A DNA stretch of 39,528 nucleotides from Polyangiaceae bacterium (GTDB lineage: Bacteria; Myxococcota_A; Polyangia; Polyangiales; Polyangiaceae): contig JBNKBE010000035.1 in assembly GCA_050287085.1 (NCBI GenBank), positions 1-39,528 of the forward strand. The letters are read 5' to 3'. Position numbers and translations under genes: made by a program. The notes under the pieces are model-generated. The model saw nothing but the letters and a program-made list of their open reading frames with translations. It was not told the DNA's origin and did not search any database. Below are positions 3,613 through 27,049 of the stretch, piece after piece; within the stretch, counting starts at the first letter, position 1, and the number at the start of each line of letters is the position of its first letter.

Positions 3613-4760
3613 CTGAAGGATCCCCACGAATATCAGGGAGTCGCTCCTATTCGGACGAGGCCTGTTAGCGTTGAAAGAGCGCGTTTAAGCGCTTCGCCGG
3701 GTGGGTGCAAACTAGGCCTAAGCATGATCTGCTGGCCGAGAAATGGGATTGAGAGGACCCGCCGGTTACGCACGGTGTTAGCCTGAAAGTGACGTAGCTG
3801 GTTCTTGGCTGACGCGTGAAGCCCGACCAACCAGAGAACCAAGGCGGCGAGCGTGCCAATAAGCAGGAGCTGTTCAAGTCGCGCAGCCGAGCGGCAACGT
3901 GCATATCTCAATCCAAAGCCGTGTCGGTGACTCTTGAGGTCTCTGAAGGTTTCCTCGTTCTGCATTCTTTGGGTGTACAGCTGCTTAACGCGTCGGCATG
4001 CAAGCCTGTTGCGGGGCAGAGAGGTCGCCAGGAGCCATGGTGCCCGATGCAGGCGACGGTACATGGTGGTAGCCTGGCCCTTTGGTCCGCGGCGAGGGGG
4101 GCGGCCCACCCGTGGCTTGTCGGCACGTACTAGATAAAGCCGAAACTTGTACTTGAGGCGCTTCGACAGCTGGACTTCTCCGATGTGCCGGACCCGAGGG
4201 GTTGCTGTCCTGTACAAGCTACCAACGAAGGACCAACGTTTCGTGCTGGTATTGTAGTATTTGATCGTGTTGCGCACGCGGCCTACCCAATGCCATCCCA
4301 GGGCTTCAACATCGCGAAACCAGGGGCCGCGGAAGCCGGCATCGGTGACCAGTATTGGCCTACAACCGGCGGGACCGCGCGGCCCCCGACGGGCATCGCC
4401 GCCTTCAGCATTACCCACTCCCGACCAAGCTCAAAGTCTGACCAGTCAATGAGGAGCACGGGCTCGCGTAGGCCCGAAAGCAGGGTCTTGGCTAAGGCTC
4501 GGTAGATCCCATCGCGTTCCGCCGCAAGATGGGGGTTGCCGAGCAAGCGATCCACCGCCTTGATATGGTGTTTGACGTGTGCCGCTGCGCGCCCCCGTCC
4601 CAAGTGAGTCAGGCCAACTTGCTGCCGGAAAGGAGACTCCCGACGACCCGCTGAAGCGCTTCAGCCCTACGACTGTGAGCGATGACGCTGTGATTGTTTA
4701 ACCAATGTGATAGAAAGCTGGTGGCGTGCATGGCGATGTCCTTCGAAGGCGTTGTGTAGG
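3613..4760 (-). mobile_element. IS4 family (IS10-like) element; transposase pseudogene; left end missing
   Basis: Terminal CTGAAGGATCCCC at 3613. Transposase split over three frames (MHATSFL...; KHHIKAVDRLLGN...IDWS; VTDAGF...Y..RMQNEETFRDLKS), with a frameshift near 4611 and an internal deletion near 4375. Confidence 0.85.
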
Positions 4761-9186: not shown

Positions 9187-9594
9187 TCACTCGCGCGGAC
9201 TGTGAAGCTCAAAGTCCAGCACCTTAGCGTATTGAGCGAAGTCCCCGTCCGTCGTGTAGATCGCCAGGTCTCGCCGAGACGCAACCGCACAGAGCAGAAA
9301 GTCCATGTTGGAACCCTGGATCCCCTTCCCACGGCATCGGTTGAATGCGCTCGCCGCTTCTTCGTAGTCGGCCTCTTCCAGCTCCAAGTCCGGAAACGCC
9401 CGCAGGTGCTCGCGCAGCAGTTCGAACTGGGCTTTTGCCTTGACTCCGGACAACAGCTCCTGACGCACAGCCCCCATCAGGACTACCCGGCCTTCTTGAA
9501 TCAGCTCTCCCAGTTCCCGGGTCGTCGTGTCGTCCACTCGCTTCGCACGCCGCAACGCCAGAGACCACACCGACGTGTCCACCAGCACCCTCAC
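9187..9594 (-). CDS. vapC: PIN-domain toxin (VapC), no adjacent antitoxin
   Basis: VLVDTSVW, QELLSG, DFLLCA and IYTTDGDF motifs; GTG start. Confidence 0.88.
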   Translation of the reverse strand: MRVLVDTSVWSLALRRAKRVDDTTTRELGELIQEGRVVLMGAVRQELLSGVKAKAQFELLREHLRAFPDLELEEADYEEAASAFNRCRGKGIQGSNMDFLLCAVASRRDLAIYTTDGDFAQYAKVLDFELHSPRE

Positions 9595-9694
9595 TGGCCT
9601 GGGGTGCATCTGGAAGGTGTTTAGGACCGCTCGAAAACAGCTCACCAAAGTTTCACCACTCCCCACGCGATTGAGCCGATGCTAAGCTGTCTGC

Positions 9695-9860
9695 GTGTTG
9701 GACACCTCTCCAGAAGCTGCTCAAGCGCAGGTTGAAGCTCATCGAAGAATGGGTCCAGCTCGTAGATTTCGAACGGCTTGCGACATGAGTGACGCGTTTC
9801 GCCGAGTCGCACTGCAACGCGTCCGACAGCAGCATCCCGAACTCTCCGAGCACGGTTGTA
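9695..9860 (+). pseudogene. Small antitoxin-like gene fragment (DTSPEA type)
   Basis: MLDTSPEAAQAQVEAHRRMGPARR...RQQHPELS followed by unrelated sequence; preceded by TG-C-TAAGCT 6 nt before the GTG. Confidence 0.45.
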
Positions 9861-10140
9861 AAAGGCAGTCACCCGACTCGACTTGCCACAATTCGAGCCG
9901 TCCTCCTGCCTCTGCAACCGCAGCCGACTTCCGCCTCGGCGCCCGACCTCCCCGTGCAGGCCCGTTTCAGCGCTGCCGAGCCTTCGTCCTGTTCGCGTCC
10001 AGCAGGCAATCCTCGCCACCTGCTCCACAGACCGCGACCTCGGCTGCCCAGCTCAAGACCTGACGCCCCACGCCGGCGCCTAGCGCAGCGCTGAAGACCC
10101 CCCTTCGTCTGCAAGTCGATGACCACGTAATACGGACTAC

Positions 10141-11395: not shown

Positions 11396-11430
11396 TTGGC
11401 CGCCTGTCGGTGCTGCTCTACACTGCGCTC
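11396..11430 (+). promoter_or_regulatory. Promoter of the NUDIX gene, probably leaderless
   Basis: TTGGCC-17 nt-TACACT-6 nt-GTG(11431). Confidence 0.55.
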
Positions 11431-12456
11431 GTGAGCTCGCGCGTCCAGGTCGTCGGTGCTGCCATCGTGCGTGACCAGCGGTGCCTGGTCGCGCAGCGCG
11501 GCGTGGGCATGAGCTTGGCCGGCAAGTGGGAATTTCCGGGCGGCAAGGTCGAGCCGGGTGAGGCTCCCGAGCGGGCGCTCAGGCGCGAGATCGCCGAAGA
11601 GTTGGGGCTACGAGTCGTGGTTGGCGAGCGCTTGGGCACGGGCAGTGCGCACGCCGGGCAGCGCCTGATCCTGCTCGAAGTCTTCGGCGCGAGCATTGCG
11701 TCTGGCACGCTCGTGCTGCGCGAACATGCCCAGGTGGTGTGGGCCACGGCCGACGAGCTGTCGCGCTTCGATTGGGCCGAGGCCGACGTTCCTTGCGTGG
11801 CGCCGGTTCAGGCGTGGCTCGCGCAAGGTGGGACGCCCGGGCGCGACTGGTACGAGTGCGGTGCGAACATCGTCGTGTTCTGTGGAACGCTGGGCAGCGA
11901 CGGGCTGTACCGTATCTCGTCGGCAGGCGACTCCGGTTGGGAGTTCTGTCCAGTCGGCACCCGGCTTTGGGACTGGTACCATCAGGCCGCGTTCAACGCG
12001 CATCGCGCGCAGCCCACGACCGTGGACGACCACCCCCGCTTGCCGCCGCTCCCCAGCGTCTGGCCTCCGGAGGCGAGCATCACGGTTTTGGACGCCAAGC
12101 GTCGTTCGGTTCACGAGCAGGTTGGCAGCGCCGTGTGGGTCGCGGTCGAGCGCGCCGGGGGCAAGCTGCCAGTCACCATCGTGCTCAAGGAAGACGGCTA
12201 CGAAACCAGCTTCGGCGACGGCTGTTTCCGCGACTTTCACACCGCGTGCATCGACGAGGCAATGGCGCGAACCCTGGCGGCGCAAGTGAGCGCTTCGGGT
12301 CTCCTCGCCCACGTGCGCCGAGGCTGCCTGGAGACCGAAGCGGGCGAACTGCGGCTCACCATGGCGGACCAAGATCGCACGCCCTTCGACCACGTGACTC
12401 TGGCAGACGTGTGCGACGCGCTGGCCCGCCCGCCTGGCGGTGAAGGACGCTCGTGA
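11431..12456 (+). CDS. MutT/NudG-type NUDIX hydrolase with ~200 aa unknown C-terminal domain
   Basis: WEFPGGKVEPGEAPERALRREIAEELG Nudix box; LREH and WAEAD motifs. Confidence 0.85.
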   Translation: MSSRVQVVGAAIVRDQRCLVAQRGVGMSLAGKWEFPGGKVEPGEAPERALRREIAEELGLRVVVGERLGTGSAHAGQRLILLEVFGASIASGTLVLREHAQVVWATADELSRFDWAEADVPCVAPVQAWLAQGGTPGRDWYECGANIVVFCGTLGSDGLYRISSAGDSGWEFCPVGTRLWDWYHQAAFNAHRAQPTTVDDHPRLPPLPSVWPPEASITVLDAKRRSVHEQVGSAVWVAVERAGGKLPVTIVLKEDGYETSFGDGCFRDFHTACIDEAMARTLAAQVSASGLLAHVRRGCLETEAGELRLTMADQDRTPFDHVTLADVCDALARPPGGEGRS

Positions 12457-20172: not shown

Positions 20173-21771
20173 TTGAGCGACAAGACAGCGTTGAGACTCT
20201 TGCAGGCAGGACTGTTGGTCCTCGGGTTGAGCGCGAGCTGCGGTGGCTCGTCGGAACCCGACGCCAGACGCTCAGGTTCCCGAAGCGATGCGAACAACGA
20301 CTCCAGCGCAGAAGCGGATGCGGCCGACGGCAACACCGATACCAGCGATGGCAACACCGATGCCGGCGATGGCAACACCGATACCGCCGATGGCAACACC
20401 GATACCGCCGATGGCAACACCGATACCGCCGATGGCAACACCGATACCGGCGATGGCAACACCGATACCGGCGATGGCAACACCGATACCGGCGATGGCA
20501 ACACCGCGGCTGCTGCTGGAGACGAGAGCGGCGACGCGGGAATCGATCTCGGTGGTGGAGCAGGCGGCAGTGCCGGTGGCAGCGGAGCTGGCGTCGACGA
20601 CGTGGGGCTCGGTGTTGGTGGCGCGTCTCACGACTTCGGCGGCTCTGCGGGCGCGCCTGGCACTCCAGACTTGACACTCCCGCCCGGCTGTCGTCCCCAA
20701 TCGCCCGAGGAAACCGAAAACCTGTGCCGACTCGTCATGGAGTGCGACACATCGCCGTCAGTTCGGACATATTGCCATCGTCTCGATTCTGGCCGCTGGG
20801 AATGTCAGTGCGCGTTTCACGAGAACCTGTACCAGCTGGAAAACACCGCCGGCCTTCAGGCGTGCGCGCTCGCGGCCGAGCTGTGCTCCGAACCCGATCT
20901 CGAACTCGGTGAGGAGCAGTGTGAGCCCACCACAGAGAGCAGCCACCCAGACGACTGCCGCACCGAGCTCACCTGCGGCCGCCCGATAGCTCTCGAAACG
21001 AGCACGGAGACTCAGGCCTGGCGCGTGCGCATCATCGATGCCTCCTGCCGGCGAGACGGAACCGGAAACACGTTTGGCTGTACCTGTCAGGAAGATGGAG
21101 CAACGGATCGCTACACGCTGCGGGCCAACGGCAGCGATCTCGCTTGCGGGCCGCTCGCTGACTTTTGCATGAGTGGTGCGACCCCCGAGTTCATCGAGGA
21201 GGGGGCCTGCATGCTGAATAGCTTCATGGCTGACAGCAAAACGTGCAACCGGGTCGATGATTGCGGAGCGCAAATGCCGCTGACGGACGACGTCAGCCTA
21301 TTGGAGCTCCAACGCAGGCACGCCACTTGCGGTTCCCTTGAGGGTGGCGGCTCGAAGTGCTCCTGCGGCGGGCTCTTGTTTCAGCTGCCGACTCCCGCTA
21401 ACAGCACAAGCTGTGAGTCATCGATCTCGATCTGCGATCCGAATGCCGTGATCGTTCCGAAAGACCTCTTGAGTTGTGAGCCGCCGTCGGTCCGTCTTTC
21501 CGGGGGGAACCAGTGCGACGCGTCGCTGATGTGCTTGGTGGATGCAACGGTGGACGGTCAAAGCGTCCCGTTCTACGGCGACGTGCAGATCCATTGCCGC
21601 CGCGCCGAGACCGACATGCCATGGGTTTGCTGGTTTCATAGTAGGCAAAATTCCGGTGATATTGATATCGAGGTAGGTGCGGGCGCCGACCCCACGCAGG
21701 CCTGCACCGACGCTTCAGCCGCCATCCTCGAGCTCCCCGATTTCCACGTCAGCATTACCAACTCAGGATGA
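20173..21771 (+). CDS. Cys-rich lipoprotein with Asp/Thr tandem repeats
   Basis: LGLSASC lipobox; (DGNTDTx)8 repeat; Gly-rich linker; several C..C.C modules. Confidence 0.8.
   Translation: MSDKTALRLLQAGLLVLGLSASCGGSSEPDARRSGSRSDANNDSSAEADAADGNTDTSDGNTDAGDGNTDTADGNTDTADGNTDTADGNTDTGDGNTDTGDGNTDTGDGNTAAAAGDESGDAGIDLGGGAGGSAGGSGAGVDDVGLGVGGASHDFGGSAGAPGTPDLTLPPGCRPQSPEETENLCRLVMECDTSPSVRTYCHRLDSGRWECQCAFHENLYQLENTAGLQACALAAELCSEPDLELGEEQCEPTTESSHPDDCRTELTCGRPIALETSTETQAWRVRIIDASCRRDGTGNTFGCTCQEDGATDRYTLRANGSDLACGPLADFCMSGATPEFIEEGACMLNSFMADSKTCNRVDDCGAQMPLTDDVSLLELQRRHATCGSLEGGGSKCSCGGLLFQLPTPANSTSCESSISICDPNAVIVPKDLLSCEPPSVRLSGGNQCDASLMCLVDATVDGQSVPFYGDVQIHCRRAETDMPWVCWFHSRQNSGDIDIEVGAGADPTQACTDASAAILELPDFHVSITNSG
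20326..20505 (+). repeat. 21-bp coding tandem repeat, 8 full copies plus a partial
   Basis: Unit GATGGCAACACCGATACCG(C/G)C read directly. Confidence 0.95.
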
Positions 21772-22137
21772 GCCCCCTACCGGGCCGCTAGTGCTGGGCG
21801 GCAGGGTAGCGGAGCTGGAAGGCAGTGGCGGCCCGCTTCCCCCTTGCTGGCTTCGCCCCATGGGGCGCATAGGACAATCGAACTGGCAAACACGGTGTGC
21901 TGCCGCCTGAACCCTCGGTCCGGAAGAGCTGTCTGGAACATCGTGACGCCAACCCCTTGATTCTTGCAGCACCAGCCCCCTCAGCCCGGACGTCGCGCGC
22001 CACTCGCGCAAGGGAACCAATGCAGGAAACCCCTCCCAGGTTCTTGTTTGCGGTACAAGAAGCTCCGTGTCACAGTCGTGGGAAAAGAGACGACTCGCGA
22101 CGGTTGCGGCGTGAGGCGACAACTCCCCACGAGCACC

Positions 22138-23064
22138 ATGGGCGCCCCTTCCCGCCACGACCCCCCACGAGGTTTGAACGCCTGTCTGCAGGAGCTTCGC
22201 CGCGAGCGCGGATTTCGCGCGGAGGTGGCGCTGGGGCTCAAACAAAAGTGCATCAACGAGTACTTGACGAGGCACGACCTCGACGCCGCGGTCATCGGCG
22301 TGAGCGGGGGGGTGGATTCTGCGGTCGCGCTGGGGCTCCTCCTGGCGGCTTCTCGCGAGCCTGAAAGCCCGCTTCGCCGGGTTGTTGGCGTGGTCGCGCC
22401 GATCCACGGACCCGGCGCGACCGGGCAGGCCCGCGCCCAGTCCCGGGCGCAAAGGGTGCTCAGCGCGCTGGGCGGAGAGCTGTGGCAGTGTGATTTGAGC
22501 GCGGTGCAATCGAGCTATGTCGCGGCGATGGGACACCACTCGTGTTCCACCCCGTGGTCGGAGGGCCAGTTGCTATCCATCGTTCGCACCCCGGCGCTCT
22601 ACTATGCTGCGGCGATGCTTCAGGCAGACGGGCATCGCTCCCTCGTGGTGGGGACGACCAACCGAGACGAAGGGGCCTACCTGGGCTTTTACGGCAAGGC
22701 CTCAGACGGCATGGTCGACCTTCAAGTCATCTCCGATTTGCACAAGAGCGAGGTGGTCGCACTGGCGCGGCTGCTTGGTGTCCCTGAGGAGGTGATCGAG
22801 GCAGCTCCCACGGGGGATGTCTTCGATGGCCGCACGGATCTGGAAATGATAGGCGCGCCGTACTGGGCGGTGGAGCTCTTTCTCTTGGCGCGCTGTGCTG
22901 GCGTCCGCGTCGAAGGCGCGGACGCACGAGAAAACGCACTCTGGCGGTCGTATTCGGAGCTCCTCGAGGCCCGACATACCCGCAACGCGCACAAATACGC
23001 GGTCGGTACGCCTTCCGTTCACCTGGATGTGTATGCGAGACGTGTCCCTGGGGGCTGGCAGTGA
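22138..23064 (+). CDS. nadE: NH3-dependent NAD+ synthetase (divergent, no glutaminase domain)
   Basis: VIGVSGGVDS PP-loop, VGTTNRDE, GFYGKASDG, DLHKSEV, APTGD, TD..MIGAPY and HK motifs. Confidence 0.85.
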   Translation: MGAPSRHDPPRGLNACLQELRRERGFRAEVALGLKQKCINEYLTRHDLDAAVIGVSGGVDSAVALGLLLAASREPESPLRRVVGVVAPIHGPGATGQARAQSRAQRVLSALGGELWQCDLSAVQSSYVAAMGHHSCSTPWSEGQLLSIVRTPALYYAAAMLQADGHRSLVVGTTNRDEGAYLGFYGKASDGMVDLQVISDLHKSEVVALARLLGVPEEVIEAAPTGDVFDGRTDLEMIGAPYWAVELFLLARCAGVRVEGADARENALWRSYSELLEARHTRNAHKYAVGTPSVHLDVYARRVPGGWQ

Positions 23065-23846
23065 AAGAGTTCCGGCCCCCACCTGGCACCCTTCCTGGAG
23101 AGTGGGAGCCGCCGGCATTCGAGCTCGGCCCCGAGAGAGCCGTACGGCCTCGCCAGGTGCACGAGTTTGCCTACGTCGCCCCACGCGCGCTGTCGGCGGC
23201 AGCGTGCGCGCAGCTGTCGGAAGCCATGCGGCTGAGCGGGTGCGCTGCGCCGGTCAGCGTCAGTGGGCACCCCTCGGTTGCGACCGAGCTCGGTTCGGTG
23301 CGGGCAACGGCCTGGGCCCCTCAGCTCGCGTCTGAGCTGTGGCGTTGTCTGAAACACGTGATTCCCCCAGAGCGCCGCATGACGCCCACGACGCCGACCG
23401 ATTGGTACGCCCTCGACGGGCGGCTCGCACACCGGCACTGGCGCGCGGTCGGCATTGGCCCCGTTCTGCGCTTCATGCGCTACGAAGCGGGAGGCCGGCA
23501 TTACGCTCACTACGACATGGGGTTCGACTACCCGGACGCGCGCCGGACGCTGATGTCCCTGGTCGTTTACCTCTCAGAAGCTGCCCCGGGTGACGGGGGG
23601 TGCACCCGGATCGTGCAGGACGGTCAACAAGCGCTGCCGGTTTGGCGCCGCAACCACGAGGACTGGACCCGCGATGTCGCCGACGAGGAAGTCGTGGCGG
23701 CAATCCGCCCCCAATTGGGAGACGTGCTGATCTTCGATCACCGACTTTGCCACGACGTCGAGCCGTACCGAGGACAGTCGAGTCGAGTCATCATTCGTGG
23801 AGACGTCGTTTTTGAGGCGCTCGATCCGGGAGAGACAAGCCAGTGA
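23061..23846 (+). CDS. 2OG-Fe(II) oxygenase (prolyl-hydroxylase-like)
   Basis: RFMRY...HYD, LVVYL, GG.T, GDVLIFDH...HD and R..IR: intact HxD...H...R set; GTGA overlap with nadE. Confidence 0.88.
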   Translation: MKEFRPPPGTLPGEWEPPAFELGPERAVRPRQVHEFAYVAPRALSAAACAQLSEAMRLSGCAAPVSVSGHPSVATELGSVRATAWAPQLASELWRCLKHVIPPERRMTPTTPTDWYALDGRLAHRHWRAVGIGPVLRFMRYEAGGRHYAHYDMGFDYPDARRTLMSLVVYLSEAAPGDGGCTRIVQDGQQALPVWRRNHEDWTRDVADEEVVAAIRPQLGDVLIFDHRLCHDVEPYRGQSSRVIIRGDVVFEALDPGETSQ

Positions 23847-25438
23847 CCTGGAAGCTCGAACGCGACGTCTTCTACAACGACTTGGCGAAGCAGCACGGCC
23901 GTGCCTTCGTAGAAGAGGCCGGCTTTTTCGAGGACACCGCCAGCGCAGACGCGCCCTTGGAGAATGTTCGCCTGCTGTGCACGCCCCTGGGTAGGGCCGC
24001 TTCCAATCTTGCTCGGGCGGCGCGCCCACCGGCCGTCTTGCTCTGCACGGGCGCGTATTGCCCGGTCCATCCGGGGCACGTCGAACTGATGGAGCTGGCG
24101 AGAGCACGGGTAGAACAAGCGGGGTTCTCCGTCATTGGCGGCTACCTCTCGCCGGGACACGACGAGTACCTGCGTCTCAAGTTGAACGACGACGCGACGT
24201 CCGCGCAGCAGCGGTTGACCGAATGTGCGCTCGCCGTGCGCGACTCCGATTGGTTGGACGTCGATCCGTGGGAAGCCCTCTACTGCCGGGTCGCGGTGAA
24301 CTTCACGGATGTCCTGAGGCGCCTCGGTGCCTACCTGGACGCGCACCTGGGCCACCAGGTCACGCCCTTTTACGCGTTCGGCGGAGACAACGCCCGCTTC
24401 TCGCTGACCTTTGCCCAAAGAGGGCACGCGGTCGTCGTGGGGCGCCCCGGCTACGCCGACCGTTTTCAGCACTACCGCGCCCATGCGCTCAACCGCTACA
24501 ACCCCCGCGTGCTGTGGGCCGAGTCGGCCCTGGAGCACTCGTCCACTGCAATCCGGGAAACCGAATTACAACGGAACCCCCGTCTACGGCAGGAACACCC
24601 GACGCATCTATCGCTTCGCTGCGAAGACGCCTCCGTTGCTCCTGGGCCTCCCGTGGCGTGGCGTGACTTTCAGCAGGCGCTCGTGGGTCTGCTCCGGAAG
24701 TGGTTCGTGGTCGAGCTGCGTACCCCGGATGAACGGCAGCTGGTGTTGGAGCCGTCTACGATTAGCCTCGATCCGTTGACCCGCGCAGAGTGTACGATCG
24801 CGATATCTCGCCTGTTCGAACTCGGAGGCTATGCACAAAAGGGCTACACGGCCCGGCCGGGCTCGCCCCCGCTGGCGACGCAGTTGAGCCAGATCCCGCC
24901 GGGCGTCTACGACGTGCTGGACGATGACGCCAGCACAGGAGGGACGCTCTCGCACGTCGCGTCCCTGCTCTGGGCAAAACACTCGCCAGACCTCGAGCCA
25001 GGCCGTTCACGCAGCATCACGATCCAACACGAAACTGCACGCGTCCGGGCGGATGCCGGGGCGGAGCGGCGAGAAATTGCCGATAGCCGAGACTTCCTTT
25101 TGGGAGCCGACCACGCCGGACTGGTGATGACCCTCGGTCCCGATGCCCTAGTTCGCGGTATCTACGCGTACCCCTACGTGGACCCGACCGCCCGCTGTTC
25201 GATCCCCGCCAGCGAGGCCCTAGAATTCTCGATCGCGATCTGGCGCCTCAACGAGACGTTCCACGCGTCGACACAGAATACGGTCGACGACCTGAACACA
25301 CCGCAGCGCGCTCTCCTGCTCCGCGCGGGCTTCGGACCGACCGAACCCCTGAGCGCTGTGTGCCGATGGCACGCCAACCAGTTGGAAAATGTCAGACCGC
25401 CGGATCCCTTTCGTGCAGAGCCGCCCGGTTGCCCATGA
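23843..25438 (+). CDS. NMN/NaMN adenylyltransferase-like (HxGH) domain fused to a type I PRTase-like domain
   Basis: TGAYCPVHPGH, GGYLSPGHDEY..K, SDWLDVDPWEA, GGD and SSTAIR; C-terminal VLDDDASTGGTL PRPP-loop; GTGA overlap. Confidence 0.8.
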   Translation: MTWKLERDVFYNDLAKQHGRAFVEEAGFFEDTASADAPLENVRLLCTPLGRAASNLARAARPPAVLLCTGAYCPVHPGHVELMELARARVEQAGFSVIGGYLSPGHDEYLRLKLNDDATSAQQRLTECALAVRDSDWLDVDPWEALYCRVAVNFTDVLRRLGAYLDAHLGHQVTPFYAFGGDNARFSLTFAQRGHAVVVGRPGYADRFQHYRAHALNRYNPRVLWAESALEHSSTAIRETELQRNPRLRQEHPTHLSLRCEDASVAPGPPVAWRDFQQALVGLLRKWFVVELRTPDERQLVLEPSTISLDPLTRAECTIAISRLFELGGYAQKGYTARPGSPPLATQLSQIPPGVYDVLDDDASTGGTLSHVASLLWAKHSPDLEPGRSRSITIQHETARVRADAGAERREIADSRDFLLGADHAGLVMTLGPDALVRGIYAYPYVDPTARCSIPASEALEFSIAIWRLNETFHASTQNTVDDLNTPQRALLLRAGFGPTEPLSAVCRWHANQLENVRPPDPFRAEPPGCP

Positions 25439-25806
25439 ACGCCCGCATGCTGTCCCCGAGCGCCCCCACGATCTCAGAGAAGACTCCGATGGCAACAATC
25501 TCAGACACACGAGAACAGCTCATCTCGGAAGGGCTCGAGGTCGCTGCCGCGCTCGTCGTTGCTGCTGAGCAGTATCACGTCAAAGATGACCGCCGAGACA
25601 TCCTCGACTACGAGGCAGCCATCGTCGACGCGCACGTTCGATGGCTACGCGACGGCGTCCCGGTGCCCAGCAACCTCGAAACCTCGGTTCTCCTCGGGCC
25701 CTGGGGACGGAACCTCGACTGGAAGGAGTCGTTGCTGCTGCGGCGCGTGGCGGCGTTTCTGGACACCATGGCGAGGTTTCACCGCGCGAAGACTCCAGCG
25801 CGGTGA
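25435..25806 (+). CDS. Small hypothetical protein (start 25435 or 25489)
   Basis: ATGA overlap with the upstream stop; protein-like helical sequence. Confidence 0.5.
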   Translation: MNARMLSPSAPTISEKTPMATISDTREQLISEGLEVAAALVVAAEQYHVKDDRRDILDYEAAIVDAHVRWLRDGVPVPSNLETSVLLGPWGRNLDWKESLLLRRVAAFLDTMARFHRAKTPAR

Positions 25807-26362
25807 CGTTGCGTTCGGCGCGGGCGCTGGGGGGGGCGACCTCGCGAGCTTCGTCAGTTGCGGCGACCACGCCGCATTCAGGTCGAGCGCGCGCCTACCA
25901 CCGCGGCTTTGCACGCGAATGGTGCCTCTCCATGGCGGAGGGTAACCTCGAGGCGCTTGCGCTGCGCGCTGAGGGCACCGACAGTGACGACGCGCGCTGC
26001 GTCACGTGTGCAGAGTTCGTCTATCGCCACCTGCGTGTCGGCACGGGACCGGCAGACCACGACACTGATCGCGAGCCCTTGCGCCACCACTTAGGCGGGC
26101 TCGACTTCGTCTCGTGTGGTTGCTTCTTCCGTTGGGGGCCGGATGCAGCCCGAGCGGGGCGCAGCGCAACCCAGCGCGTGTTGTCGTTCACCCGTATTGC
26201 TCCGCTCAGGAGAACAGCAGTCCGCTCTATGCACAACTGACGAGGAGCACGCTCCTCGTCCTGGGCGCGGTGCCGCCCTCTGCGCGTGTCGTGGCGTGCA
26301 CGGCCGGGGCTGCGGGGGCGTTGCGGTTGCGGAGAGACCGGTTGGTGTTGTATTGGCTCGGA

Positions 26363-27049
26363 ATGCTTCAGATTCTCCAGGAGTGGCTGGCGACGAGGTT
26401 TGAACCTAGACCGATGATGTCAAAAGGCGAGATCGCGGCCACTCAGGCAGTCTGCTCGTTGTTCGACCGACCCCTGCGCGTACTGGAGTGGGGGTCCGGC
26501 TACAGCACGTCCTATTTCCCGAAGCGCTTGACGGCCGGCTCCACCTGGGATGCGATTGAGCACGACGAATCCTGGGCTGGGGTTGTCGCGCGGAATCTCT
26601 CGCGTTGGAGTGTGCCCGGCGCACAGGTGCACTTTGTCCCGGCGAGTCAGCCGTTCGTGGTCGGACGCGGAATTGATGGGACCGAGGCTGAGTTCGCGGC
26701 GTACGTCAGCGCGGTGGAACGATTTGAGCCTGGCGTTCTCGACGTGGCGCTGGTGGACGGGCGTGCGCGGGTTGCTTGCACGAAGCGGGTTTGGCCCAGA
26801 CTCGCTGAAGACGGCGTGGCTATCCTGGACGACGCCAACCGTCCTCACTACGCTGACGCCATTCCTGACGGGGCGGCTTGGGTGGCGCTCCGCGATACTC
26901 GCAAGCTCGTCGACGGGACACCGGTGACCGTGGTCTTCTTCTTCAAGTCCCCGGCGATGTCGGAACGGTTCGAGGCGGCCATTGCGCCCCTACGATCGCG
27001 CAAGGTCGAGGTTTGGGCGGGGCGCCACCCCGAATCCTGGCTGCGGTGA
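26363..27049 (+). CDS. Class I SAM-dependent methyltransferase-like protein
   Basis: VLEWGSGYST, IEHD..W, DVALVDGRAR and ILDD..R..Y motifs. Confidence 0.8.
   Translation: MLQILQEWLATRFEPRPMMSKGEIAATQAVCSLFDRPLRVLEWGSGYSTSYFPKRLTAGSTWDAIEHDESWAGVVARNLSRWSVPGAQVHFVPASQPFVVGRGIDGTEAEFAAYVSAVERFEPGVLDVALVDGRARVACTKRVWPRLAEDGVAILDDANRPHYADAIPDGAAWVALRDTRKLVDGTPVTVVFFFKSPAMSERFEAAIAPLRSRKVEVWAGRHPESWLR

Follow-up and report, generated by a model that had tools for sequence, protein, structure and literature searches.

A three-gene module lies within the 39,528-nucleotide stretch of DNA analyzed here (the window), which is carried on contig C35 (JBNKBE010000035.1) of a Polyangiaceae genome assembly of 6.2 Mb that is 96.8% complete. 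Its open reading frames (ORFs) encode, in order, a NadE-like enzyme (ORF1), an Fe(II)/2-oxoglutarate (2OG) oxygenase (ORF2), and a fusion of a nicotinamide mononucleotide adenylyltransferase (NMNAT) domain to a phosphoribosyltransferase (PRTase)-like domain (ORF3). The trio is conserved as an accessory, mobile unit, scattered over bacteria, plasmids and large phages. We propose, with a probability of about one half, that it is an extra, NrtR-controlled salvage route that yields NAD+ from a precursor beyond the reach of the ordinary salvage enzymes. A predicted operator upstream of the module, together with the NAD genes found beside it in other genomes, points to a likely NrtR-controlled, ADP-ribose-induced route of NAD salvage.

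Predicted control by NrtR

The strongest evidence for a link to NAD, absent from an earlier note on this DNA, is the genomic rank of a palindrome at 22041-22061. NrtR sites share a GT-N7-AC core in a 21-bp palindrome, and NrtR binding is suppressed by ADP-ribose, as described in the text of PMC2330246. The host carries an nrtR gene (Nudix plus NrtR_WHD; contig C26) divergent from nadV, with two similar sites between them; the matching region of another module-bearing locus, L009, has three sites, and there the same nadV operon continues into the module. When a matrix was made from these five sites, the palindrome ranked third in the 6.2 Mb of the host genome, after the two nrtR/nadV sites, at 22.5 bits with the next sequence at 14.9. 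With a matrix trained only on the three sites of L009, the three highest scores fell on the two nadV sites and on the module palindrome (26.3, 21.5 and 19.4; next 14.9). Of the genome's 30 perfect GT-N7-AC palindromes, it is also the only one whose arms are AT-rich. The sequence pattern of an NrtR regulon is thereby present, namely nrtR in the genome and an upstream 21-bp GT-N7-AC site resembling nrtR's own, and 22041-22061 is likely an NrtR operator. Among 46 other loci, four have a GT-N7-AC palindrome no more than 200 bp from nadE, where shuffled sequences gave an expectation of 1.1.

The C26 region (locus L111:324-3818) has a further feature: nadV is followed by a 395-aa gene without a Pfam match, and the same gene stands between nadV and the module in L009. 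It looks like a fusion of an N-terminal part of CinA/PncC type with a part of adenylyltransferase type that has an NPIHDGH motif.

Conservation, fusions and carriers

The closest homologs of the module are in Polyangiaceae and other Myxococcota. A NadE query of GTDB genomes returned nine loci, eight of which have the trio in the same order (Myxococcota, Cellvibrio, other Gammaproteobacteria and Cytophagales), while the stretch examined at the ninth shows no gene of the trio but nadE; an ORF3 alignment search returned 6 viral and 71 metagenome loci. Once nine near-duplicates and loci with less than 1,700 bases upstream had been removed, 39 informative loci were left, 34 of which have both nadE and the oxygenase gene, compactly and in the same order in 30. 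The earlier note had made its reading depend on conserved linkage with the oxygenase, and conserved it is, up to gene fusion. Three architectures occur among 93 loci (near-duplicates included): three separate genes, a NadE-oxygenase fusion followed by ORF3 (28 loci), and a fusion of all three (4 loci), the NadE-oxygenase fusion being the commoner of the two fusions. A protein search found ten triple-fusion proteins of 1,069-1,232 aa, and 23 of the best 150 representatives exceed 1,000 aa. In the low-GC, phage-like loci L037 and L080, nadE and the oxygenase gene are kilobases apart.

A profile search gave 656 clusters at E<=1e-30, with partial matches counted in. The trio is found on plasmids of Variovorax, Leptospira, Streptomyces and Paenibacillus, and the viral carriers are six contigs, the loci collected being mostly bacterial; no match was found among 50,697 annotated phage records. 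Within the phylum, full-length ORF3 occurs in 4 of 400 genomes, two others (G292 and G331) having the NMNAT part only and one (G153) a stand-alone C-terminal domain.

Some relatives of the parts were seen in passing. A stand-alone copy of the PRTase-like domain (L029, G153:C11) and stand-alone eukaryote-type NMNAT genes (L030, L031) occur in other Myxococcota-phylum genomes. The triple fusions P0125, P0126 and P0130 have a short helical insert between the oxygenase and NMNAT domains, which we take to resemble a degenerate J-domain without HPD. A database protein name, "putative synthase, similar to eukaryotic protein", hints at eukaryotic homologs, none of which was traced.

The three proteins

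ORF1 matches the Pfam family NAD_synthase (PF02540) at E 4e-28 and TIGR00552 at 86 bits (cut-off 63.65), and 16 of its 16 Protein Data Bank (PDB) matches are NH3-dependent NAD synthetases; its scores against full-length NadE equivalog models are below cut-off. The top PDB sequence match, nearly tied with ordinary NadEs, is 3fiu, which we take to be the Francisella enzyme. The PP-loop ATP pyrophosphatase residues of NadE are conserved (S56-G57-G58-D60-S61, T173, E178 and K203), and the SGGxDS P-loop, E178, K187, D194, K203 and H285-K286 are kept in all 44 NadE rows of the family alignment. In E. coli NadE numbering, the retained positions are the P-loop, T160, E165, K173, D176, D180, K189 and H260-K261. 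The ATP/Mg residues are all kept except at T211, a position that is variable in the family, and the deamido-NAD-binding residues of the E. coli enzyme are R140, K173, D180 and H260-K261. On this side of the active site, K187, D194 and H285-K286 are invariant, and the positions of R140, N136 and TKYGD are changed. The subfamily has marks of its own, namely GQxxSxxRTP, GKASDG and a conserved C-terminal tail ending in PGGW.

ORF2 matches 2OG-FeII_Oxy_3 (PF13640) at E 6e-9, and the residues expected of an Fe(II)/2OG oxygenase, H150-x-D152 and H231, are present in 38 of 38 rows. R242 is present in 36 of these rows, with R or K in all 38, and R81, R246 and D248 are invariant. The structural model (pLDDT 92.9) gave a VIA Z of 16.1 to an algal prolyl 4-hydroxylase (P4H) and of 15.0 to PolD, an oxygenase of the polyoxin pathway, and P4Hs are the best matches by both structure and profile. 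P4Hs are marked by a Tyr at the third position ahead of HxD and by the outer-shell residues of P4H/PHD enzymes. ORF2 departs from these marks: H147 replaces the P4H Tyr in 35 of the 38 rows and L replaces it in the other three. The positions of R246 and D248 are occupied by T and W in peptide hydroxylases. H147 and the invariant R246 and D248 near the site argue for a substrate that is probably a charged small molecule. The module's own match in PADLOC is to a generic 2OG model.

The N-terminal part of ORF3 belongs with the pyridine-nucleotide adenylyltransferases: it has the fold of the HIGH superfamily with HxGH and SS(T)xxR motifs, and pyridine-nucleotide enzymes are its nearest relatives. 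It matches Pfam CTP_transf_like at E 2.5e-5, and its model (pLDDT 93.3) is closest to eukaryotic NMNATs, the best solved relatives, with a Foldseek E of 3e-10 to human NMNAT3 and a VIA Z of 20.7 to the Arabidopsis enzyme (root-mean-square deviation 2.2 over 188 aligned residues). The VIA Z values of the domain are 18-21 for eukaryotic NMNATs, 12-16 for NadD and about 10 for PPAT. H76-x-G-H79 is present in 123 of 123 ORF3 rows, and HxGH, DPWE, GxDN and S234 are invariant; Y109, K113, T155, an aromatic residue at 190 and S234-R238 are also kept, and H106, N153 and N183 are family-specific invariants near the base pocket. The domain is of the eukaryotic type and not an orthodox bacterial NadD, scoring 39 bits against TIGR00482 (cut-off 112).

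The C-terminal part has the phosphoribosyl pyrophosphate (PRPP) loop of type I PRTases, D360-D361-D362-x-x-T365-G366-x-T368, set between a strand (354-363) and a helix (367-377), with the consensus DDDxx[TS]GxT over residues 360-368. R323, D414, D417, Y441 and R451 are invariant. A profile of 55 such domains gave 28 matches at E<=10, 25 of them to type I PRTase folds, with a best E of 0.01; the best matches, adenine/hypoxanthine PRTases and PRPP synthetases, span 40-50 residues (strand, loop and helix) and not the whole domain. Four of the 55 domains match Pribosyltran at E<=0.1, Atlas features of 0.81-0.83 provide a lead only, and phmmer with the single domain returned noise only. Fold searches with whole ORF3 listed no PRTase, because the NMNAT domain filled the lists. 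In the NMNAT-PRTase fusion that had been called earlier, the PRTase label has a weaker basis than was implied there, a match over 40-50 residues. The accompanying statement that the catalytic motifs are intact was borne out, in that the NadE, oxygenase and NMNAT motifs are conserved across the family alignments.

Genomic neighborhood and the question of defense

Flanks were annotated in 51 loci, and genes of NAD salvage or its regulation (nadV, nadR, pnuC, nadM-Nudix or nrtR) lie within about 5 kb of the module in ten (L009, L013, L014, L015, L045, L062, L081, L092, L105 and L119). In L013, L014 and L062, which are probably kin, the order is TonB receptor-pnuC-nadR-nadV. A nadV gene is accompanied by a Nudix gene in L009 and by ADP-ribosylglycohydrolase and nadM-Nudix genes in L015, and L105 has nadM-Nudix-nadV. 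A nadR gene is found in L045 and L081, and nrtR is directly upstream in L045 and L119 and downstream in L092. A gene of the Asp/Glu racemase family is directly upstream of nadE in six loci (L092, L094, L096, L100, L105 and L116), and an NAD-dependent DNA ligase is nearby in three of five distinct viral loci.

Two observations concern these neighbors themselves. In two Cellvibrio loci, a gene for another 2OG-Fe(II) oxygenase, unlike that of the module, stands between the module and nadV (L013:4097-4750, L014:4862-5419), and a C-terminal CTE motif is kept in the five module-coupled racemase-family sequences that were read.

The earlier note had suggested that NAD is rebuilt during conflict. Its stand-alone NAD module is upheld by conservation, the NrtR site and salvage neighbors, but the conflict part is weak: PADLOC matched 5 of 47 chosen neighbor proteins, of which three, its NrtR included, belong to the Leptospira locus, and the phage records gave no match. 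The survey of neighborhoods and fusions that had been called for turned up fusions and NAD neighbors in bacteria, the six viral contigs and the plasmids, but few defense neighbors. A role against NAD-depleting defense is plausible for the phage copies, and the bacterial neighborhoods give it no support. The idea that the module sits in a defense island was rejected on these counts and on those for the window, where PADLOC matched 2 of 19 proteins, both at least 10 kb from the module. The one clear defense-island setting seen was that of the plasmid copy L119 (NZ_CP043881.1), where nrtR and the module stand beside HNH, TIR-domain and abortive-infection genes and an integrase.

Accessory status and the NAD genes of carriers

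None of 40 relatives, 17 of them in the same genus, carries a match to the module, and the host has separate housekeeping NAD enzymes: a glutamine-dependent NadE, NadM-Nudix, NadV, NadA, NadB and NadC. The module is therefore accessory, as had been claimed. The question whether both housekeeping genes exist has a divided answer, since the glutamine-dependent nadE is present but canonical nadD is missing from the host genome, a lack better explained by NadM-Nudix than by the module. The syntenic place of nadD is empty, with both flanks on one contig, and nadD is present in 14 of 17 genus mates. Among 25 genomes searched, NadM-Nudix is found only in the host and in G006, which likewise lacks nadD and does not have the module, arguing that loss of nadD follows NadM. 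The place itself (G000:C14, about 50800-51565) looks like a clean in-place loss when set beside genus mates, NadM-Nudix (C24) apparently having replaced nadD as in G006.

Among other carriers, nadD is present in 9 of 10, and a second nadE in all five that were checked. Over 12 carriers, nadA and nadB are each present in 11 (one nadB partial) and pncB in five (a count without a non-carrier baseline). Two assignments were rejected on these counts, one in which the oxygenase would take the place of NadB and one in which the PRTase-like domain would strictly take that of PncB.

Gene layout and other features of the window

The features are collected in Table 1. Successive genes, all on one strand, are joined by GTGA, GTGA and ATGA overlaps. 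The earlier note had treated four overlapping genes as one operon; coordinates and overlaps were confirmed for all four, but ORF4 has no homolog in any related locus. Its base use is coding-like, and it has no Pfam, NCBIfam, PADLOC or PHROG match. With neither a family match nor a homolog in related loci, ORF4 falls outside the conserved unit, which is one of three genes, and the four-gene operon was ruled out as the unit. No sigma-70 promoter and no convincing terminator were found.

Table 1. Features of the module and its surroundings (positions in the window).
Feature	Position	Strand	Details and basis
Predicted NrtR operator	22041..22061	.	7-bp perfect arms, 7-bp spacer, GT-N7-AC core; 76 bp 5' of the nadE-like ATG
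ORF1, NadE-like amidoligase, single-domain, distinct subfamily	22138..23064	+	308 aa; Pfam PF02540, PDB matches, E. coli NadE alignment, conservation
ORF2, Fe(II)/2-oxoglutarate oxygenase, prolyl-4-hydroxylase-like fold	23061..23846	+	261 aa; Pfam PF13640, model, structure search, conservation
ORF3, whole	23843..25438	+	531 aa
ORF3, N-terminal part: short conserved lead-in and eukaryote-type adenylyltransferase domain for nicotinamide or nicotinic acid mononucleotide (NMN/NaMN; residues ~43-250)	23843..24592	+	Model, Foldseek, VIA, motifs
ORF3, C-terminal part: PRTase-like domain, PRPP-type loop	24593..25438	+	Profile search, Pribosyltran matches, Atlas lead
ORF4, no family assigned, outside the conserved module	25435..25806	+	123 aa, ATGA-coupled

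Just 3' of the module (26114-27049) is a methyltransferase gene (Methyltransf_24, weak) that is not beside the module in other loci, and on the 5' side (20173-21771) is an ORF rich in cysteine that resembles a secreted protein or a lipoprotein; it contains a series of 7-residue DGNTDT repeats and has no Pfam match. The left half of the window has mobile marks, namely a DDE transposase (3633-4418), a PIN-like pair of toxin-antitoxin appearance (9187-10028), a PDC-M40A-like gene (89-631; E 4e-16) and a Nudix gene (11410-12456) whose long uncharacterized C-terminal part matches PDC-S07 (E 3e-41).

Proposed pathway and alternatives

In the scheme that we favor, NrtR binding, each reaction and the product are what we infer from the genes. 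Cleavage of NAD would raise ADP-ribose, NrtR would leave the module operator and the nadV sites, and the module and nadV would be co-expressed. Oxidation by the oxygenase would free a small pyridine compound or nucleotide from its block, perhaps through loss of an N-methyl group or repair of damage to the ring. The base would then be coupled to PRPP by the PRTase-like domain and the resulting mononucleotide adenylylated by the NMNAT domain; amidation of the acid with ammonia, by the NadE-like enzyme, would come before or after adenylylation. Searches for pncB came up empty in 7 of 12 carriers, the host included, which fits this salvage scheme.

Several observations weigh against it. No NAD pathway is known to use a 2OG oxygenase, and the known pyridine PRTases are of type II, not type I; protein hydroxylases are the closest folds to ORF2; and the PRTase assignment hangs on a short motif and is putative. 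In the NadE family, N136 of the E. coli enzyme is Q, K138 and R140 are replaced by hydrophobic residues (V, I, Y or T at R140), and TKYGD (the T172-Y174-G175 region) reads GKASD, changes on the substrate side that may mean another substrate. By a strict test, 42 of the 46 other loci have no nearby palindrome, and two of the four that do (L010 and L011) are close kin; 41 of the 51 annotated loci have no NAD neighbor; and in the carriers, where nadD, nadA and nadB are nearly always found and pncB in part, NAD synthesis is already complete.

The loss of some deamido-NAD-binding residues in NadE makes an NAD analogue possible as the product. Here the oxygenase would hydroxylate the ring to a pyridone (N-H bases of this sort are taken by type I PRTases), the dinucleotide would be assembled by the PRTase-like and NMNAT domains, and the altered NadE would amidate it, giving a cleavage-resistant cofactor, a decoy or an inhibitor of NAD-cleaving enzymes. 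A PRPP loop of type I and not of the type II fold, the family-wide NadE changes together with the NMNAT base-pocket invariants H106, N153 and N183, the redundancy of the module with complete NAD pathways, and the phages and plasmids among its carriers all speak for such a product, as does the tie of PolD, an oxygenase of a nucleoside pathway, among the top folds of ORF2. However, the predicted co-regulation with nadV and the placement in plain salvage operons fit replenishment of NAD itself, and defense neighbors are few, so that we regard the analogue as unlikely. Slightly less doubtful, though still tentative, is the broader possibility of a new pathway, in which an ADP-ribose-induced module common to bacteria, plasmids and jumbo phages, with its oxygenase, type I PRTase-like domain, eukaryote-type NMNAT and re-shaped NadE, either makes an oxidized NAD analogue or recovers NAD from a damage product for which no repair is known, and so blunts NAD-cleaving enzymes.

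The remaining explanations take the NadD- and NadE-type activities at face value. The oxygenase could be a nitrogen donor, deaminating a (D-)amino acid oxidatively and passing ammonia to the fused synthetase in place of a glutaminase domain; the predominance of the NadE-oxygenase fusion, the absence of a glutaminase from the module and the six upstream racemase-family genes would fit, as would two reports, one that VioC oxidatively deaminates D-arginine (PMC12721151) and one that two-component NAD synthetases are marked by an extended C-terminal loop (PMC3376133), the module NadE having a conserved C-terminal tail. We consider this improbable, as the racemase gene is missing from most loci, including the host's, the two genes are far apart in L037 and L080, and 2OG plus O2 is a costly price for ammonia. 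It seems just as improbable that the oxygenase is a protein hydroxylase of the prolyl type and the PRTase-like domain a sensor of PRPP or ribose phosphate, making the module an oxygen- and PRPP-gated second NadD/NadE pair. P4Hs are the top structural and profile matches, and catalytically silent PRTase folds do act as regulators (PyrR, PurR and ComF), but the replacement of the P4H Tyr by His in 35 of 38 rows and the invariant R246 and D248 suit a charged small molecule, and many charged residues of the C-terminal domain are invariant outside the loop as well. Plain replacement of lost housekeeping nadD and nadE genes is very improbable. Deletion of nadD from a place where most genus mates keep it would suit this explanation, but the host has a glutamine-dependent nadE, nine of ten other carriers have nadD, NadM-Nudix is present both in the host and in G006, which has neither nadD nor the module, and the oxygenase would be left unexplained. 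The salvage of an unusual precursor to NAD+ under NrtR control is the reading that we prefer.

Comparison with known systems

Few parts of metabolism are as well mapped as NAD synthesis, and the known routes of this synthesis need neither a 2OG oxygenase nor a type I PRTase. A module that has stayed intact up to triple fusion, with a predicted response to NrtR, suggests that a precursor, a damage product or an analogue has been missed. Whatever names its enzymes are given, the predicted operator links the module to NAD physiology, and it indicates when activity would be expected, namely once NAD has been cleaved. The module can be tested directly in cultured carriers that have names (records of Pendulispora, Variovorax, Streptomyces and Paenibacillus) and as single-chain fusions. 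The earlier note had not recognized the combination as one already described, and our literature search, conducted on titles and the beginnings of abstracts, likewise found no description of the gene set, subscription journals and supplements being places that could hold a mention.

The NrtR regulons of PMC2330246 share with the module the 21-bp GT-N7-AC palindrome, and nrtR stands there beside nadV, nadM, nadE and pnuC-nadR; the operon-table excerpt of that paper includes no oxygenase or NMNAT-PRTase fusion, and its main text does not mention Myxococcus or Leptospira. The Francisella NMN synthetase route, in which NadE* acts before NadM (cited in PMC3376133), has in common with the module a single-domain NadE homolog with a possibly shifted substrate. 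It differs in that the partner in the module is a eukaryote-type NMNAT fusion, and in that the Asn and Arg of N-x-x-A-R are kept in 3fiu and changed in the module.

The closest parallels are the Preiss-Handler route and the NARP systems. The PncB-NadD-NadE enzymes of the former, found in bacteria and large phages alike and present as a pncB-nadD-nadE cluster in a gut jumbo phage (PMC11662467), bring together the PRTase-type, adenylyltransferase and NH3-type NAD synthetase activities that the module would have. That cluster uses ordinary enzymes, and neither "oxygenase" nor "2OG" occurs in the main text of the paper, whereas the module has an obligate 2OG oxygenase, a divergent NadE subfamily, triple fusions, and a type I-like PRPP loop fused to a eukaryote-type NMNAT in place of type II PncB and bacterial NadD. 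NARP1 (Adps and Namat), NARP2 (Nampt and Nmnat; both 10.1101/2024.02.11.579819) and NARP3 (PnuC and NadR; PMC13464706) are, like the module, accessory and mobile sets of NAD-building genes; an NMNAT is common to the module and NARP2/3, and the module is often beside nadV, pnuC and nadR. None of the three pairs is in the module, however, and the available texts on NARP1-3 have no occurrence of NadE or an oxygenase, while the module is mostly bacterial in the loci collected, and any anti-defense activity of it is conjectural. The module resembles a Preiss-Handler or NARP-type route and belongs to neither.

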